NCBI GenBank assembly: GCA_046757165.1
Contig: JBHHXT010000170.1
Coordinates: forward strand, 1 to 10,796
DNA length: 10,796 nucleotides
Source of the DNA: a bacterium
Lineage (GTDB): Bacteria; Zhuqueibacterota; Zhuqueibacteria; Oceanimicrobiales; Oceanimicrobiaceae
Direction of reading: 5' to 3'
Of the stretch, positions 35 to 7,201 are shown piece after piece. Each line of letters begins with the position of its first letter. Within the stretch, counting starts at the first letter, position 1. The position numbers and the translations under genes are program-made. The notes beneath the pieces are model-generated. The model searched no databases. It had not been told where the DNA came from and saw only the letters and a program-made list of their open reading frames with translations.

Positions 35-472
35 ATGGAAAACCCGTTTGAATTCTTGCGCATCGACCCGGCTGCGGACATTCACAAAATCACGGAAATC
101 TGTCAGCAGCGCAGCCAAACCGCGACAGAAGAAGAGCGCCGGCGGATCCAGGATGCGCTCATCGCCCTGCGGGATGAAAAACGCCGGCTGCAATTTGCGC
201 TGGGCACACCTCACAATCCGGAATATGAGGTCTCAGCCTGGGACCGGTTCATACAGGAGCACCGGCGGATGCCTTTCAAACAAAAAGATGTCATACCGCC
301 AGGTGTGAACAGCGCACAGCTCGAGGACATCGATCTCGCGCACCTGGAAATCCTGCTCAGCCAGCCTGATCCGGAGGAGCACCCCTTGAGCCGGCAAGAG
401 CTGCAGACACTGGCCGCGGCTTTTGATTTTGACAAGATGTTTCTGGATTATCTAAATCAGATCGAAGCATGA
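35..472 (+). CDS. J-domain-like protein lacking the HPD motif (145 aa)
   Basis: NPFEFLRIDPAAD resembles J-domain helix I (DPYEVLGV...AS). ATEEERRRIQDALIALRDEKRRLQF resembles helices III/IV (AEEKFKEINEAYEVLSDPEKRxxY). No HPD is present. Lies directly upstream of the GrpE-like and Hsp70 genes, with an ATGA overlap at 469-472. Confidence 0.7.
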   Translation: MENPFEFLRIDPAADIHKITEICQQRSQTATEEERRRIQDALIALRDEKRRLQFALGTPHNPEYEVSAWDRFIQEHRRMPFKQKDVIPPGVNSAQLEDIDLAHLEILLSQPDPEEHPLSRQELQTLAAAFDFDKMFLDYLNQIEA

Positions 473-978
473 AACAGCCTGAAGTATTCAAAATCACAGA
501 AGCTCCCAGGACCCTGCCGGAACACACCAGCGCTGGAACCTACCTGGTAGACCTGGTGCGTCTGGTGCGGGAAGGGGACCACGCAAAGCAGGCGGCTGAA
601 GAAAAAGCAACACGCCTGCAGGAGAAAATCGACACGATCTTGATTCAAGTTGCGGACGCGCTCTTTGACCTGCGCCGCATGCTGGAAAGGGACGATGAGT
701 CGAGGCTGACGGCGCGCATGCGGGCGCTCAGCCAGCCCCTGGAGGCCCTGCTGCAGAACAGCGGGGTCACCATCGAGGAGCCGACCGGGCAAATTCTGCA
801 AGAGGCGCTGCACCAGAAAGTCGAGCTGCACGGCTGGCTCCCCTCTGATGACACGGAGGAACGCGTGCACGAAACCATCGCGCCTATCGTTTTGCGCGCA
901 GGCCGGGTCATTCGGCCGGGACGGGTTATCGGCCTGTCCAGGAACGCAAACAACAAACCGGAGGCAGAAAGAGAATGA
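469..978 (+). CDS. grpE: Divergent GrpE-like nucleotide exchange factor (169 aa)
   Basis: N-terminal long helix (AEEKATRLQEKIDTILIQVADALFDLRRML), then LLQNSGVTIEEPTG...LHQKV...VHETIAPIVLRAGRVIRPGRV, matching the GrpE C-terminal pattern (L..GV..I...G..FDP..HEA...V.E....GY....RVLRPA.V). ATGA overlaps on both sides; adjacent to Hsp70. Confidence 0.8.
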   Translation: MKQPEVFKITEAPRTLPEHTSAGTYLVDLVRLVREGDHAKQAAEEKATRLQEKIDTILIQVADALFDLRRMLERDDESRLTARMRALSQPLEALLQNSGVTIEEPTGQILQEALHQKVELHGWLPSDDTEERVHETIAPIVLRAGRVIRPGRVIGLSRNANNKPEAERE

Positions 979-3527
979 TTGTAGACAAAGCCATCGGAAT
1001 CGATCTGGGGACCACCAACAGCGCCGTCGCTGTGCTCGACCTCACGGATACGAATCTCATCATCGCTGCGGACGAGCGGGGTCGCAATACCACGCCCTCG
1101 GCGGTCGCGGTCGACCCCAGGAACGGTGAGGTGCTGGTTGGCCGCGAAGCCCGCCGGCGCCGGGGCACCACGCCCGAGCCTGTTTTGTCCATCAAAAGAA
1201 AGATGGGCACCGCCGAGCGCGTTCGGCTGGGACAAGAAAAAGTCTCTCCGGTGCACGTCTCTGCGCTGATCCTGCGGGAAATGAGGCGCCAGATCGAAAC
1301 CCAGCTTACGCGCACCTATAACGACGTGGCGTTCGAGATCAAGCGGGCCATCATCACCAAACCAGCCTATTTCGGGTTTCAGCAAATAGAGCAGACACGC
1401 GATGCCGGGATGGCGGCGGAGCTGGAGGTGGTGGAGCTCCTGGAGGAACCGACGGCCGCAGCCATTTACTACTCCTGGAAGCATGGCCTGCAGGATGCCA
1501 CCTTCATGGTCTACGACCTCGGCGGCGGCACCTTCGATGTTTCGATCATCCGCCGAATCGCCGGCGAATACCAGATCCTGGGGGTCAGCGGAGACAACTA
1601 CCTCGGCGGCGACAACTTCGACCGCCTGCTGGCAAACCACATCCTGGACAATCTCATCGCCGACGGCTACGACCTGAAATTCGATACCAAAAACAGCCTG
1701 CAGGACAAACTGAACTTCGAAAAGCTGGTGATGAAGGCAGAAAGCAGCAAAATCGAGCTGAGCAGCACCGACGTCTACCAGCTCCACGCTGCGGATATCT
1801 TCTCGGACCGCCAGGGCCAAAGCGTCACGCTGGACATGCAAATCTCGGACAAAGAATTTGAAAGCCTGATCGCCAACGATATCGCCCGCACCATCCTGCT
1901 TTGTGGTGAAGCCATGGAACAGGCCAAACAGAAAGCCGACAAAGACGAACTCAAGATCGATCATATTCTCATGGTCGGAGGATCTTCCAAGATACCGTAT
2001 GTTCAGCGTCAGCTCGAGCAGGCGTTTGCCGCCAGGCCCCTTTTGGACGAGCCGGACACCTGCGTGGCCTTCGGCGCTGCCCTGCGCGCCGCGACCTTCG
2101 GCACAGCCATGACAGACGACAGCCGCAAAGTGCAGGTTTTCTTCCCCAAAGCCAGCGCGACGAGCCAGACTACTTACTCTCTCACCGGAGAGGTGAAAGC
2201 GCTCGACCCGGCGGTGGACCTGGAGAGCGCGACCGTTGAGGTCGTCAACCAGGTCTCGGGTGAAAAACGCGAAGAAGAGCTCGACGCAGACCACCGCTTT
2301 GTCATCGACAATCTCGCGTTAGATGAAGAGTTTACCAACAATTTCACGCTCAGAGTCCTCGACCAGGAGGGGCAGGAGCTGGTGCACCTGGCGCGCAACA
2401 TTGTGCAGAGTAAGACGCACACCAGCGCCGGTGGTGAGCTCTCGCGCGTCACGACCCTGGCGCGGCCCATCCAGCTCGAGATTTTGCGCGGCAACCAGGT
2501 GCGGAAGAAAGTGCTGCTGCGGCGCGGAACCTCGCTGCCCTGTGAAGAGAAGTTCAGACTGGCGACCGTGGACGAAAGCAATGAAATCCGCTTTCCGATC
2601 TACGACGAGCACATGCTGCTCAAAGAGGTCACCGTCAAGCTCGACCCGCCGCCCGCGATCGGCACGCAGATCGACTTCGTGATCCGGTGTGATGAAAAGT
2701 ACTTCATGACCATTCACGGCGACATCCAGGGCAAGAACTTTTCCGCCTTCATCGAACCGCCCCCGCCGCAGAAACCGCCGACACCAACGGACTGGGAGCG
2801 ACTGCAGCAAGAATTCGACGATGTGTGCCAGTCACTGCCCGAAGGTGAAAAGATCGTGTTCGAAGCCAGGCGGATGCGACTCGACCGCTCTCTGAAAGAA
2901 GCCTTCCAGGCCAACGACAGCCCCATGGTACAGAGCAAGATGGGTGAGTACCGTGACCTGGTTGAGGAGATCAAACTGCAAGCGAGCGAGACTCTGGAGC
3001 CGCCGTGGGAGGAGTTTATGAATGTTGCCAATGCCTGCAAGCAACTGGGCACCCTGGCAGCGCAAAAACTCCCTGGCTTCAAACCCGATGAATGGCAGCA
3101 AAATATCCAATTTCAGATCGACAAGGGGCAGGAAGCGTTTGCCAGCAAGAATCAGCAGTTGTATTCCCACTGCCACGAACGGCTTCTGAACTTTTATTTC
3201 TATCTGAAAGATCAACTGAAACCTGCCGCGCCGGTCGGCCAGGAGTCGGAACCGGATCCGGGCGCAGAAGCCATGCAGGTGCTGGGCCAACTGGCCAATG
3301 ATATCCAGAAGTTAGGCCAGGCGGCGCAGGCCAAGAATCGCCAGGACCTGGTCGAGCGGGTGCGGGAGCTGAACATGACGCTCAATCAGCTCTATCAAAA
3401 AGTTCCAACTGAACCGCAGGAAGTCATGACGCAAGCCAGAGTCATTGCGGCCGAGCTGAGCAAGATCGCGCAGCAATTGAAAATACCGGTCGACGCCATC
3501 GGGCTGGTGCAGGAGGTGAATCCCTGA
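975..3527 (+). CDS. Non-canonical Hsp70 family protein (850 aa); specialised DnaK paralogue, not housekeeping DnaK
   Basis: Hsp70 ATPase signatures: GIDLGTTNS, TPSAV, SIKRKMG, PAYF, EPTAAA, VYDLGGGTFDVSI, LGGDNFD, ILMVGGSSKIP, VAFGAA. SBD-beta-like region at aa ~491-594. GGAGG Shine-Dalgarno at 960-964. Confidence 0.95.
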   Translation: MIVDKAIGIDLGTTNSAVAVLDLTDTNLIIAADERGRNTTPSAVAVDPRNGEVLVGREARRRRGTTPEPVLSIKRKMGTAERVRLGQEKVSPVHVSALILREMRRQIETQLTRTYNDVAFEIKRAIITKPAYFGFQQIEQTRDAGMAAELEVVELLEEPTAAAIYYSWKHGLQDATFMVYDLGGGTFDVSIIRRIAGEYQILGVSGDNYLGGDNFDRLLANHILDNLIADGYDLKFDTKNSLQDKLNFEKLVMKAESSKIELSSTDVYQLHAADIFSDRQGQSVTLDMQISDKEFESLIANDIARTILLCGEAMEQAKQKADKDELKIDHILMVGGSSKIPYVQRQLEQAFAARPLLDEPDTCVAFGAALRAATFGTAMTDDSRKVQVFFPKASATSQTTYSLTGEVKALDPAVDLESATVEVVNQVSGEKREEELDADHRFVIDNLALDEEFTNNFTLRVLDQEGQELVHLARNIVQSKTHTSAGGELSRVTTLARPIQLEILRGNQVRKKVLLRRGTSLPCEEKFRLATVDESNEIRFPIYDEHMLLKEVTVKLDPPPAIGTQIDFVIRCDEKYFMTIHGDIQGKNFSAFIEPPPPQKPPTPTDWERLQQEFDDVCQSLPEGEKIVFEARRMRLDRSLKEAFQANDSPMVQSKMGEYRDLVEEIKLQASETLEPPWEEFMNVANACKQLGTLAAQKLPGFKPDEWQQNIQFQIDKGQEAFASKNQQLYSHCHERLLNFYFYLKDQLKPAAPVGQESEPDPGAEAMQVLGQLANDIQKLGQAAQAKNRQDLVERVRELNMTLNQLYQKVPTEPQEVMTQARVIAAELSKIAQQLKIPVDAIGLVQEVNP
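3511..3518 (+). promoter_or_regulatory. Shine-Dalgarno sequence for the TPR gene, embedded in the Hsp70 3' end
   Basis: AGGAGGTG ends 10 nt before the ATG at 3529. Confidence 0.8.
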
Positions 3528-3528
3528 C

Positions 3529-3993
3529 ATGGAACGTGACGCCAAACTGCTCTGTCCCCACCAGACGTGCGGACACCTGAACGCTTGGGACAAAACCGAA
3601 TGCGAGGCATGTGGTGCGGACTTGCGCACATTTGCCAGGCTGTATCTCATTCCTGCATTATTATATAATCAAGGGTTGCAGGCGTATCACGAGGGCGCGA
3701 CAGAAAAAGCGCTGCGCTACCTGCACCTGTCGAGCGAGCTCAATCCCAGAGACGTGCAGCCGCTGCTCGTGCTCGGCAAACTCTATGCGCAGCAAGAAAA
3801 GCTCGAGCTGGCGATGGACGTCTGGCTCGACGCACTCGAAGTCGATCCCAGCAACAAAACCGCCATGACCTGCTTGTATGAAGCGAAGAAACTGTTGACC
3901 GCGAAACGAACAAAGGCGAGCAAACCGAAACGCCGGGGCGACAAAAAATCGAAATCGCGTCGTCGCGCCAGCCGCGTGACTGCTCGCAAATGA
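3529..3993 (+). CDS. Zinc-ribbon + TPR protein with basic C-terminal tail (154 aa)
   Basis: CPHQTC...CEACG zinc ribbon. Two TPR motifs (YNQGLQAYHEGATEKALRYLHLSSELNP; LLVLGKLYAQQEKLELAMDVWLDALEVDPSN). Last 36 aa contain 18 K/R. Strong SD AGGAGGTG at 3511-3518. Confidence 0.88.
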   Translation: MERDAKLLCPHQTCGHLNAWDKTECEACGADLRTFARLYLIPALLYNQGLQAYHEGATEKALRYLHLSSELNPRDVQPLLVLGKLYAQQEKLELAMDVWLDALEVDPSNKTAMTCLYEAKKLLTAKRTKASKPKRRGDKKSKSRRRASRVTARK

Positions 3994-4257: not shown

Positions 4258-5541
4258 ATGAATGCTCGAAGAAAACTATTTCTAAACCTGGCGTTGCTCT
4301 CAGGCATGTTGATCGGCTGTGCAAGTCAAGCGCCACATACCACGCCGGTGACCTCTCCAAAGCCGGCGCCTCCGCCGGCAACGCAGGCCTGGGAGGACCA
4401 AATCTATTTCGAGGACAAAGAAACGGAAAAGCAATTTAGCTGGCAGCTCGAACCCAATGAACAGATGACCCTCCCTATGACCTTCACAACCAGGGGCAAG
4501 CTGGAGGTGGTGAATTATCACTCCAGCACCACGGACCTTTATTTCAACGAACAGGCCGAGGGGCGCCATTTCCGCTCAAAAAAACACAAACGGGAATTTA
4601 CCAAGAAAGTGACCCGAGGCATGCTCAACAGACGCTACTACCTGCATGTCATTTCCAACGCCACCACCCCAGCAGAAGCTGCTATCAAGATGGAATTCAG
4701 CCCGGAGCCCATTCAGGTCGTGAACAAGGAGCCTGTGGTGGTAACAAAACCCAAGGCAGCAGAAACGCGGCGCAAAAGGTCGAAGGAGTCTGCCACACCT
4801 CGCTCGCGAAAAAAAGAAAAGCGCCCGGCCAGACCACCGAAACCTGAACCGGCACCGCCGCCAAAACCGGCAGACGTCGCCAGCAAAAAAGATCCCTGCG
4901 CCACGGCACAGGATCTTTTCGACCGGGCGAAAACCGCCTACAACCAGGGGAATCTGGAGGAAGCCAGCCGCCTGGCCTCGACGGTCAGCGGCGACTGCCC
5001 GCAAATCCAGCGCGAAGCTGACGTTCTGGTCGAAGCGATCGCCAAACAACAACTGGAGCAGATGCAGAGCACCTTTCAGCGCATTGTCACGCTGGTGGAC
5101 ACAGACCGGTCCACAGAGGCGCGCCGGCTGCTGCCGAAACTCAGAAACTCGAGCGAGCTCTACGACCAGGCGCGCGAGCTGATCGAATCGGCCGAAAATA
5201 CCGGTGTGGTGCTCGGCAGTCTGGCGGTCAGCAGCGGAGTCCCGCGCAAAGGCCAGGGCGTGGACGCACGCGGGCGGTTGGCGCAAGGCCGGCAAACGAC
5301 CTATTCTCTCAACATCGAAAGCCGCGGCGACCTCGAGGCCATGGTGGATCTGGGCTACACCCTGCGTGGGGGCGGCCTGGAGCTCAAGGAGATCAAGCAG
5401 GTCAGGATCGGCAGTGAAAAGGTGGACAAACTGCGCTACGTCTGGCTCAACGTGAAACCAGGCACAAAATTGGACGTCACGGTGCGCAACCAGGACGGCA
5501 ACGCAAACTACGCCATCAATTTCTATCTCTATCCGAATTGA
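4258..5541 (+). CDS. Uncharacterised multidomain lipoprotein (427 aa)
   Basis: Basic n-region, hydrophobic h-region and lipobox LIG-C (Cys21). Then a Pro-rich tether, beta-rich domain, K/R/P-rich linker, TPR-like helical region with Cys214/Cys247, and a second beta-rich domain. Confidence 0.85.
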   Translation: MNARRKLFLNLALLSGMLIGCASQAPHTTPVTSPKPAPPPATQAWEDQIYFEDKETEKQFSWQLEPNEQMTLPMTFTTRGKLEVVNYHSSTTDLYFNEQAEGRHFRSKKHKREFTKKVTRGMLNRRYYLHVISNATTPAEAAIKMEFSPEPIQVVNKEPVVVTKPKAAETRRKRSKESATPRSRKKEKRPARPPKPEPAPPPKPADVASKKDPCATAQDLFDRAKTAYNQGNLEEASRLASTVSGDCPQIQREADVLVEAIAKQQLEQMQSTFQRIVTLVDTDRSTEARRLLPKLRNSSELYDQARELIESAENTGVVLGSLAVSSGVPRKGQGVDARGRLAQGRQTTYSLNIESRGDLEAMVDLGYTLRGGGLELKEIKQVRIGSEKVDKLRYVWLNVKPGTKLDVTVRNQDGNANYAINFYLYPN

Positions 5542-5557
5542 ATCACAGGAGAGTTGT

Positions 5558-7201
5558 ATGAACAGCTTGATCTTACACCGTCTCACGGGTGAAAAATCCG
5601 GTCTTTATTTGTTGCTGTTTTTGTCGTTGCTGCTGGTGAGCAGTGGCAGCGGATGCAGCGGCGATTCCGGCGCGAGAGAAATCTCGGTCGGCATTTCCCT
5701 GGAACCCAAGACCCTGAATCCCATCCTCGATTTGAACAACGAAGCCAGGCAGATCACCAGTTTGGTCTTCGACGGCTTGACAAATCCCATCGGATTGTCC
5801 GGCAATCTGCGCCAGGAGTACGAATACGCTCTGGCGCAAAAGATCGCGGAAACCGATCCACGCGACCGGCGGTTTCTGCGCGTCGAGCTGCGGCCGGGGA
5901 TCAAGTGGCACAACAACGTCGATTTTACCGCCGGCGACGTCCTGTTTACCTGGGAGGCCATTCACCAGAGCAACTCCCCGCTCAGGGTCCGGCTCGACCG
6001 CTTCGTCGACGACATCCGGGTGGTCGATGATCTGACCCTGACCATTCGGTTGCGGGAAGAACGCATCGCCGAGCGCGTGAAGGACATCCTGTCATTCAAA
6101 ATCCTGCCGCAGGTTTATGACCCGTCTGCCGGCGCAAGCGGGCACCTGCCCCGGAATCTCAACACGCAGTCCCCGATCGTGAGTCGGTTCAACTGGAAGC
6201 CGGTGGGCACCGGTCCCTACCAGGTCTCCGAACGCCCGGCCTCTTCTGAGATTTTTCTTTCCGCCAACCCGCTCCCGGTCCTGGGCGCGCCAAAGGTTCA
6301 AAAGGTGCAGCTCAAACGGTTTCCGGGATGGGACGTGATCACCAAAGCGCTGGCAGAAAAGAACATCAACCTGGCCGTCGATGTGCCGCCGGATTATTTT
6401 GCCCAGCTCGATAGGGAGAACCTGGCCAACCAGGTTTACTCGCCCTATAATTTCTATGTACTGGTCTACAATGTCTCCAGTCCGCCGCTGAACAGCCGGC
6501 GATTCCGGCGGGCGCTCACCCAGACGGTGAATCGCGAGCAGTTGGCCGCGACTTTTTTGCCCGACGAGCCCAATGTGGCGCAATTCATCAATGAAAGTAT
6601 CTACCCGTACAACTACGAGCACGTGCAGGACAACCCTGAGGCATTTCGCACCCGGCTCACCACCAACCCGGCTGCTGCAAAGCGGGCCTTGAGAGATTTC
6701 AGCGCCAGCAGCAAGAAGATTCGCTTGCTCTATTGCTCGCTCATCAACGGCGAAAACGCCAATCTGCTGGCCCAATCCTACAAACAAATGCTGTCAGCCG
6801 TCGGCGTGGAGGTCATCCTGGAAAACGCGCCCAACATCGCTATCTACCATTCGCGCCTGCGCAGTCGGGAGTTTCAGGTGGCCTTCGTTCTCTACGATGG
6901 ATTGGACCACTTTTATGAGCTGTACGACTTTTTCGAGCCTGATGGCAAAAAGAAACACTCCGGTTTTGTGCACCCGCGGCTGACCAATCTTTTGGCTGAG
7001 CTCAAACTGACGCTCGCCTTTGACGACGTCGGCCGATTGTCCGCGGAGATCCATCGCATCATCGACCGCCACGCGCCTGTCTGTCCGCTCTTTACGCTGC
7101 CGAAGCGGGCGTATTATTCACCCAATTTGCAGGATTTGATGATCAACCCGGAGTACTATTTTAATCAGTTGTATCTTGCAGACTTCTATCAGGGAGATTG
7201 A
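5558..7201 (+). CDS. ABC transporter substrate-binding protein, family 5 (OppA/DppA-like), probable lipoprotein (547 aa)
   Basis: EPKTLNP, LVFDGL, LRPGIKWHNNVDFTAGDVLFTW, VVDDLTLTIRL, PVGTGPY and RFRRAL...VNRE are all SBP_bac_5 patterns. Hydrophobic signal ends in SGSG-C. SD AGGAG at 5547-5551. Confidence 0.92.
   Translation: MNSLILHRLTGEKSGLYLLLFLSLLLVSSGSGCSGDSGAREISVGISLEPKTLNPILDLNNEARQITSLVFDGLTNPIGLSGNLRQEYEYALAQKIAETDPRDRRFLRVELRPGIKWHNNVDFTAGDVLFTWEAIHQSNSPLRVRLDRFVDDIRVVDDLTLTIRLREERIAERVKDILSFKILPQVYDPSAGASGHLPRNLNTQSPIVSRFNWKPVGTGPYQVSERPASSEIFLSANPLPVLGAPKVQKVQLKRFPGWDVITKALAEKNINLAVDVPPDYFAQLDRENLANQVYSPYNFYVLVYNVSSPPLNSRRFRRALTQTVNREQLAATFLPDEPNVAQFINESIYPYNYEHVQDNPEAFRTRLTTNPAAAKRALRDFSASSKKIRLLYCSLINGENANLLAQSYKQMLSAVGVEVILENAPNIAIYHSRLRSREFQVAFVLYDGLDHFYELYDFFEPDGKKKHSGFVHPRLTNLLAELKLTLAFDDVGRLSAEIHRIIDRHAPVCPLFTLPKRAYYSPNLQDLMINPEYYFNQLYLADFYQGD

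Follow-up and report, generated by a model that had tools for sequence, protein, structure and literature searches.

A bacterial Hsp70 family with an intact ATPase site and a replaced HPD-responsive surface, encoded beside a J-like protein that lacks HPD

The best-described bacterial Hsp70 system is DnaK-DnaJ-GrpE of Escherichia coli. Residues R167 and Q378 of DnaK both bind D35, the aspartate of the J-domain HPD motif, and basic residues of J helix II meet DnaK E206, D211, E217 and D477 (PMC8215388). The switch role of R167 is described in PMC7289447 and PMC13012618, and this HPD-dependent switch is regarded as almost universal (PMC8215388, PMC13012618, PMC13580251). Here, we analyse a long Hsp70 of 850 amino acids (aa) encoded at 975..3527 of contig JBHHXT010000170.1 (assembly GCA_046757165.1, a bacterium of the Zhuqueibacterota); the whole contig, 10,796 nucleotides (nt), is the stretch of DNA analysed and is referred to as the window. 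Judged from its sequence, this gene is a member of a widespread, unnamed bacterial Hsp70 branch in which the ATP-splitting residues are intact and the DnaJ-sensing hub has been rebuilt, so that the protein is likely HPD-independent.

Like DnaK, the window Hsp70 has a nucleotide-binding domain (NBD; 35% identical) with the catalytic residues, a homologous substrate-binding beta domain (SBD-beta), a predicted ATP-type docking of the two, and J-like and GrpE-like genes next to its own. Unlike DnaK, it has R151, R167, D148, Q378, E206, D393 and the DVLLLD linker replaced, and adds an immunoglobulin (Ig)-like insert of ~95 aa, a helical tail of ~245 aa and a J-like partner lacking HPD. Its family also occurs sporadically, in 4 of 167 genomes of the phylum, unlike a housekeeping DnaK. 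HscA/HscB and HscC/DjlB-DjlC of E. coli likewise pair a private Hsp70 with its own J partner, HscA shares the E206R change, and HscC is not stimulated by DnaJ (PMC8215388). However, both HscA and HscC keep D148, R151, R167, Q378 and D393, their partners keep HPD or HPE, and they are shorter than DnaK (550–620 aa) and work without GrpE, whereas the window Hsp70 comes with its own GrpE-like gene. Hsp110/Sse1 and Ssz1 offer a different likeness, a degenerate linker and lost J-domain stimulation (PMC13580251), but the window protein is bacterial, has its own GrpE-like and J-like genes, and carries its insert before the linker rather than in SBD-beta. The GAP1-N2 DO-GTPase theme (Kaur et al. 2020, PMC7159879) also includes a private Hsp70 with GrpE, sometimes a second Hsp70, links to DnaJ/tetratricopeptide repeat (TPR) proteins and kinases, and hosts among multicellular-type bacteria; yet no GTPase pair, GAP1, tubulin or FNIII was recognised among representative neighbours of the present family, in flanks of 6–8 kb. 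We found no publication describing a family of Ig-insert Hsp70s (subscription journals and supplements lay outside the search). Nearest in print are Kaur et al., whose cassette differs, and a review from 2026 that asks what DnaK derivatives do (PMC13580251).

Residue numbers were transferred from E. coli DnaK (NC_000913). BLASTP covers residues 5–386 and pairs K70 with K74, V142 with K129, D148 with F135, R151 with I138, R167 with E154, E171 with E158 and T199 with T186; a profile-profile alignment of the NBD (aa 1–375; 975..2099, on the + strand like every feature of the cassette given below) returns the same pairs (P=100, E=2.5e-88). BLAST stops before the SBD, and the register of D481 comes from MAFFT and from hhalign of the family SBD against 31 DnaKs plus HscA/HscC (P=96.4, E=1.4e-9). 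Both place D481 at K575, anchored by D479 at D573. A first-pass annotation of this locus, aligned by eye, had proposed these five substitutions (codons starting at 1359, 1377, 1386, 1434 and 2697) along with intact equivalents of K70, E171 and T199, and it was right on all of them. The NBD substitutions lie together with R142 (DnaK K155) in one remodelled stretch at 1359..1436; beyond it are R193 at 1551..1553, in place of the J helix II contact E206, and R371 at 2085..2087, in place of Q378, the second contact of the HPD aspartate. In the degenerate interdomain linker (aa 489–497; 2439..2465), L495 occupies the D393 position, in a register set by eye from the downstream strand PIQLEI/PLSLGI.

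E. coli DnaK and 30 further DnaK loci served as the canonical control. V142, D148, R151, K155, R167, N170, E206, Q378 and D393 are kept in all 31, and because not one of them departs from V142, D148, R151 or R167, the substitutions in the window sequence exceed chance. Position 481 is Asn in 30 of the 31, and Asp in E. coli DnaK only. Other contigs of the host genome encode a canonical DnaK as well as two canonical DnaJ proteins, so the window Hsp70 is an extra one. It has the traits of the Hsp70 superfamily, an actin-fold NBD with K70, E171, D194 and T199 and an SBD-beta homologous to that of DnaK; its score against the NCBIfam DnaK model TIGR02350, 247 bits, is below the cut-off of 822.55, and the DVLLLD linker after the NBD, D148, R151, R167 and Q378 have no match in it.

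The same hub is replaced across the family. The C-terminal part of the window Hsp70 matches 4 of the 167 genomes of the host phylum, the host included. Scanning with a degenerate motif that excludes positions 151, 167 and 481 gave 90 matching stretches from genomes and 43 from metagenomes, with none in viral contigs, and the named hosts include Streptomyces, Actinomadura, Ktedonobacteria, Planctomycetota, Myxococcota, Bradymonadales, Calditrichia and Acidobacteriota. The 147 Hsp70 open reading frames (ORFs) from the loci were reduced to 86 and then, at <90% identity, to a main set of 75, by dropping those that had no insert match at E<1e-3, had no intact N-terminus, were shorter than 620 aa or were identical. 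K70, P143, Y145, F146, E171, D194 and T199 (window K74, P130, Y132, F133, E158, D181 and T186) are invariant in this set. By contrast with the canonical DnaKs, none of which has lost R151, R167 or D148, all 75 relatives have lost the three: position 151 is I, V or M (71/3/1), position 167 is E, G, D or T (44/16/14/1), and position 148 is never D. The replacements elsewhere are nearly as uniform, with R at position 155 in 73 members, H at 170 in 63, R at 206 in 73, R at 378 in 63, and mostly L or I at 393 (linker register by eye). The HPD-responsive surface has thus been lost family-wide, as the first-pass annotation supposed for the single protein. V142K, which it listed beside the others, was rejected as a family trait, with K in 1 of the 75 and in 1 of 63 rows of a second set.

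The second set comes from a search with the C-terminal 475 aa (best 150 of 171 matches; 63 of 149 representatives cover both sites); it overlaps the main set in part and includes some degenerate representatives (E171 lost in 6 of 63). Position 167 is acidic in 40 of its 63 rows, and loss of R151 and R167 appears to be typical, not absolute, in distant members. Six long-branch relatives of the Planctomycete clade (P0131, P0151, P0160, P0180, P0181 and P0222) have a decayed PAYF/EPT region, and from this they are probably ATPase-dead.

Two genes precede the Hsp70 gene. The first encodes the J-like protein (145 aa; 35..472, with the frame open to the contig start), and the second a GrpE-like nucleotide exchange factor (169 aa; 469..978) that overlaps both neighbours by 4 nt and matches Pfam PF01025 with E=6.8e-6, at 26.3 bits just above the gathering score of 25.8. 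The J-like protein itself has no Pfam match, the Pfam DnaJ model matches none of 65 family members, and no PDB sequence matches. A profile of its family nevertheless aligns over 57 columns to J-domains (hhalign P=80.8, E=1.3e-5, with only four canonical J-domains on the other side), and the Atlas lists a DnaJ cluster for it at rank 8 with a score of 0.90. Helices I–IV align to the J-domain, TEE stands where HPD would be, the following loop is ~10 aa shorter, and a tail of ~85 aa is added after the J-like part. HPD is found in the helix II–III loop in none of 116 J-like rows; in four loci HPD strings do occur, after helix III. The net charge of helix II has a median of -2 in the 116 rows versus +3/+4 in the four canonical J-domains, and the position of canonical R27 is E or D in 102 of the 116. 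Such an acidic helix II would complement the E206R change of the Hsp70. Of 68 loci, 46 yielded a J-like gene; many of the other 22 are short contigs or Planctomycete loci, in which the J gene lies far downstream. A complex prediction with Hsp70 residues 1–600, ATP, Mg and the J-like protein scored 0.00, with an uncertain fold for the partner, and speaks neither for nor against binding.

These data bear out the claim that the neighbouring partner lacks HPD, and suggest that it is J-like. It had also been suggested that Hsp70 and partner lost their matching surfaces in parallel. Both losses are real, but the family is one clade, and the co-loss of HPD and R167 therefore counts as one event, not as a correlation. 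The same genome has a second private Hsp70 cassette (G000:C105, L142: 9659-15802, - strand), comprising a 227-aa GrpE-like ORF (recognised by eye), a 522-aa Hsp70, a 331-aa ORF and a 666-aa Hsp70-vWA fusion. The 331-aa ORF has a J-like start by eye, without HPD, and both Hsp70s keep R151 and D393 and have Q at position 167. It is possible that R167 was lost independently here, again next to a partner without HPD.

An AlphaFold2 model built with 74 family sequences has a predicted local distance difference test score (pLDDT) of 93.7 and a predicted template modelling (TM) score of 0.87; a single-sequence fold reached only pLDDT 47.5. The model comprises the NBD (1–375), an all-beta domain (386–478), a less certain segment (~481–490), SBD-beta (499–593) and helical bundles to residue 835. 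The SBD-beta-like domain (aa 498–594; 2466..2756) contains the invariant P522 (DnaK P419), D573 and K575 (codon 2697-2699), and its loop after strand 4 is 7 aa shorter than in DnaK. VIA-align ranks ATP-bound BiP 5e84 first (Z=45.9, root-mean-square deviation (rmsd) 3.4 Å over 458 aligned residues; model 1–598 versus BiP 25–528), and 3d2e and 5mb9, entries of the atypical Hsp110/Sse1 and Ssz1 group, come third and fourth in the structure search. Foldseek gives TM scores by target of 0.76–0.77 to lid-truncated docked Hsp70s (7kzu, 6zmd, 5o4p) and of 0.51–0.63 to 2kho, 2v7y, 7a4v and 6hab, the docked or undocked state of these entries being in part our assumption. In the model, then, SBD-beta is predicted to dock on the NBD still, as in ATP-state Hsp70s and as the first-pass annotation had supposed. 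The helical C-terminal region (~245 aa; 2784..3524) is far longer than the DnaK lid and departs from the ATP-state lid of DnaK (rmsd 22–33 Å over full-length entries). At the extreme C-terminus the model has a short confident strand (aa 845–847; 3507-3515), which could occupy the protein's own peptide cleft as a pseudo-substrate; many relatives' tails, variable as they are, contain GL-type motifs.

The insert between NBD and linker (aa 386–478; 2130..2408) has weak Ig-like Pfam matches in the family, to Big_6 in 8 of 50 members (best E=7e-4) and to CarboxypepD_reg in 4 of 50, and no match to PDB sequences below E=0.08. The Ig-like fold is a lead only, and the whole-model structure search barely probes it.

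How might docking be held in these proteins? One proposal, made in the first-pass annotation, is that an E154-K575 salt bridge replaces an R167-D481 bridge of DnaK with its charges reversed. In the window protein, the confirmed K575=D481 register and the docked model together make it likely that the two residues lie near each other; E and K likewise occupy positions 167 and 481 in the closest relative (56% identical), and a mostly Planctomycete subclade combines E with K or R in 19 of the 21 rows having data. The window Hsp70 groups with the Planctomycete clade at a support of 82, but this grouping is gone in a larger tree. Across the family, moreover, position 481 varies freely among orthologues. 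The 75 rows have K in 20, Q in 11, L in 9, H and N in 7 each, R and S in 5 each, and six rarer residues (13 types); the second set has 15 types in its 63 rows, and on the tree position 481 changes at least 23 times against six for position 167. An acidic residue at 167 meets K or R at 481 in 23 of 58 main-set rows, and in the second set it meets K in 4 of 40 rows and D or E in 8. The covariation expected of such a bridge is absent from the family alignment. Mutual information with average product correction (MI-APC) gives the 154/575 pair Z=-0.4, rank 445 among the partners of 154, in an analysis of low power (N=138, effective number of sequences 96) whose top ranks are invariant columns; and of 8 independent pairs for 167/481, 0.7 go the same way and 0.4 the opposite way. 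In DnaK, moreover, D481 mainly contacts R151 and the backbone of I168, while a salt bridge to R167 or K155 is described only as possible (Kityk et al. 2015, PMC4595643); as noted above, canonical DnaKs other than that of E. coli have Asn here. We therefore regard the reversed bridge as an improbable means of docking. The contact may exist in the window protein, its closest relative and the Planctomycete subclade, a minor, lineage-level detail on which the family does not depend.

A better candidate partner for E154 is R371. By MI it ranks first among the partners of E154 (Z=2.5), and K or R at position 378 accompanies an acidic 167 in 55 of 58 main-set rows versus 8 of 17 otherwise, and in 23 of 40 versus 1 of 23 rows of the second set. 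We suggest, as a lead, that the counterparts of R167 and Q378, which hold the HPD aspartate in DnaK, may here bind one another. R151 and D393 have both been replaced by hydrophobic residues (I138 and L495), a concordant change. A further possible swap, D326/K414, was rejected as a general feature; the two positions are mutual best MI partners (Z=2.3), with K/R opposite D/E in 10 of 75 rows.

The neighbourhood of the family suggests what it may act on. The core of the cassette consists of a Clp-like AAA+ gene, a serine/threonine (S/T) kinase gene, a giant TPR gene, the J-like and GrpE-like genes, the long Hsp70 and a zinc-ribbon-TPR gene, in conserved order. Among 68 loci, the GrpE-like gene recurs in 36, the giant TPR gene in 28, the zinc-ribbon-TPR gene in 22 and a kinase and/or Clp-like AAA+ gene in 17; a TPR pair is found in 12, of the Planctomycete type, and two tandem Hsp70s in 10. 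In the window, the zinc-ribbon-TPR protein (154 aa; 3529..3993) fills the same slot, the last of four tightly coupled genes at the start of the contig. The upstream half appears to lie elsewhere in the host assembly. Contig C84 ends with a gene for a 933-aa Clp-like double AAA+ protein (16386-19187) and overlaps by 55 nt with C376 (1-4000), which has an S/T kinase gene and a 779-aa TPR gene; we infer from the gene order of the closest relative that C84/C376 is this half, and C376 and the window have no overlap. The genes downstream of the cassette vary from locus to locus, among them TIR, TIR-STAND, kinase-NB-ARC-TPR, CHAT with Clp_N (on the opposite strand in Streptomyces), CHAT-FGE, and MotA/OmpA-like pairs with HtpG. 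This variable effector slot suggests that the cassette is a conflict system.

Several single loci deserve mention. In L042 (410-3901) a family Hsp70 has a TIR domain fused at its C-terminus. A MotA-like/OmpA-like pair, which we take to be ZorA/ZorB-like, follows the cassette in L068, L045 and L031, with a TIR protein in between in L045 and L031 and with HtpG (Hsp90) genes after the pair in L068. In L009, L037, L072, L074, L099, L116, L121 and L129 the tandem Hsp70s belong to different subclades within one operon, and it is possible that they form a heterodimer. In the window itself, the cassette is followed by genes for a lipoprotein and a peptide-binding ABC transporter (4258-7201); a lipoprotein and a peptide-binding ABC protein also follow the cassette in the closest relative (L113), and this transporter operon may travel with the cassette in their lineage.

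We propose that the window Hsp70 is an active private chaperone, closed to HPD-type J-domains. A rebuilt interface would keep it docked, and its dedicated J-like and GrpE-like proteins would drive its action on clients of the cassette; we put the probability of this reading at roughly 0.5. The Hsp70 would work only with these co-encoded partners. Its polar R151/D393 pair would be replaced by the hydrophobic I138/L495 pair, and E154 would be satisfied in cis, with R371 or R142 a likelier partner than K575; the pocket into which the HPD aspartate ordinarily fits would thereby be closed. The J-like protein would bind through helix II, charge-reversed in most of the family, and would target or sterically trigger the Hsp70. 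The likely client would be the TPR/kinase/AAA+ apparatus encoded in the same, conflict-type cassette rather than bulk misfolded protein. A bolder version, tentative and rather unlikely, is that the multi-phylum Ig-insert Hsp70 is a fully orthogonal machine in which E167-R378 seals the HPD pocket, J-docking charge is reversed, an HPD-less J-like protein acts as the switch, and infection leads the AAA+/kinase/TPR cassette to fold death effectors (TIR, caspase-like CHAT, STAND) or to release them.

Allostery may instead have been lost rather than rewired, leaving an Hsp110/Ssz1-like scaffold, holdase, nucleotide exchange factor (NEF) or uncoupled ATPase with a J-like protein that does not stimulate it. 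Nearly all known coupling residues have indeed changed together, including D148, on the path from substrate to ATPase, and the K414/D326 clamp; the D481K mutant of DnaK has an 84-fold higher basal ATPase and no synergy, and changes at R151, K155 and R167 increase basal activity as well (PMC4595643). The tandem paralogues, too, bring to mind the proposal that DnaK derivatives act like NEFs (PMC13580251). However, the catalytic and proline-switch residues are invariant in all 75 members, and the replacements at positions 151, 155, 206 and 170 are themselves conserved, a pattern suggestive of selection for a new network. That more than half of the loci have their own GrpE-like gene implies a regulated nucleotide cycle. 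On balance we consider outright loss unlikely, though it deserves to be taken seriously. That the protein is an ordinary DnaK paralogue, still stimulated by canonical DnaJ and carrying tolerated drift, seems very improbable. Its fold and docked geometry are Hsp70-like in the model, P419 is invariant, and an HPD/AAA change does not always abolish stimulation (PMC13012618); but E206, D477, R167, Q378 and L391, which bind J helix II or HPD, are replaced, the linker motif is gone, and the score against the DnaK model is far below its cut-off.

Several observations weigh against the private, HPD-independent chaperone that we prefer. The second set keeps K or R at position 151 in 15 of 63 rows and at 167 in 3, and 16 of the 75 main-set members have Gly at 167, 8 of these together with R378. 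Once phylogeny is taken into account, the association of E154 with R371 falls short of significance: of 8 independent pairs, 3.1 go in the same direction and 0.0 in the opposite one (median p=0.25). Helix II of the window J-like protein has a charge of +1 and is not acidic, and the E206R change is also that of HscA. The docking in the model may owe something to what AlphaFold has learned from other Hsp70s. As for a conflict role, PADLOC 2.0 gave no match at E<=0.1 for four cassette proteins, and no effector gene adjoins the window cassette, where transporter genes follow.

The family includes culturable hosts such as Streptomyces, Ktedonobacter, Thermosporothrix and Actinomadura. As a naturally occurring trio of Hsp70, J-like protein and GrpE-like protein whose hub has been exchanged in its entirety, it lets J activation without HPD be probed, and likewise what else can hold the ATP state of an Hsp70. 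If it is true that this set is insulated from DnaK and DnaJ, it would be a ready-made orthogonal chaperone.

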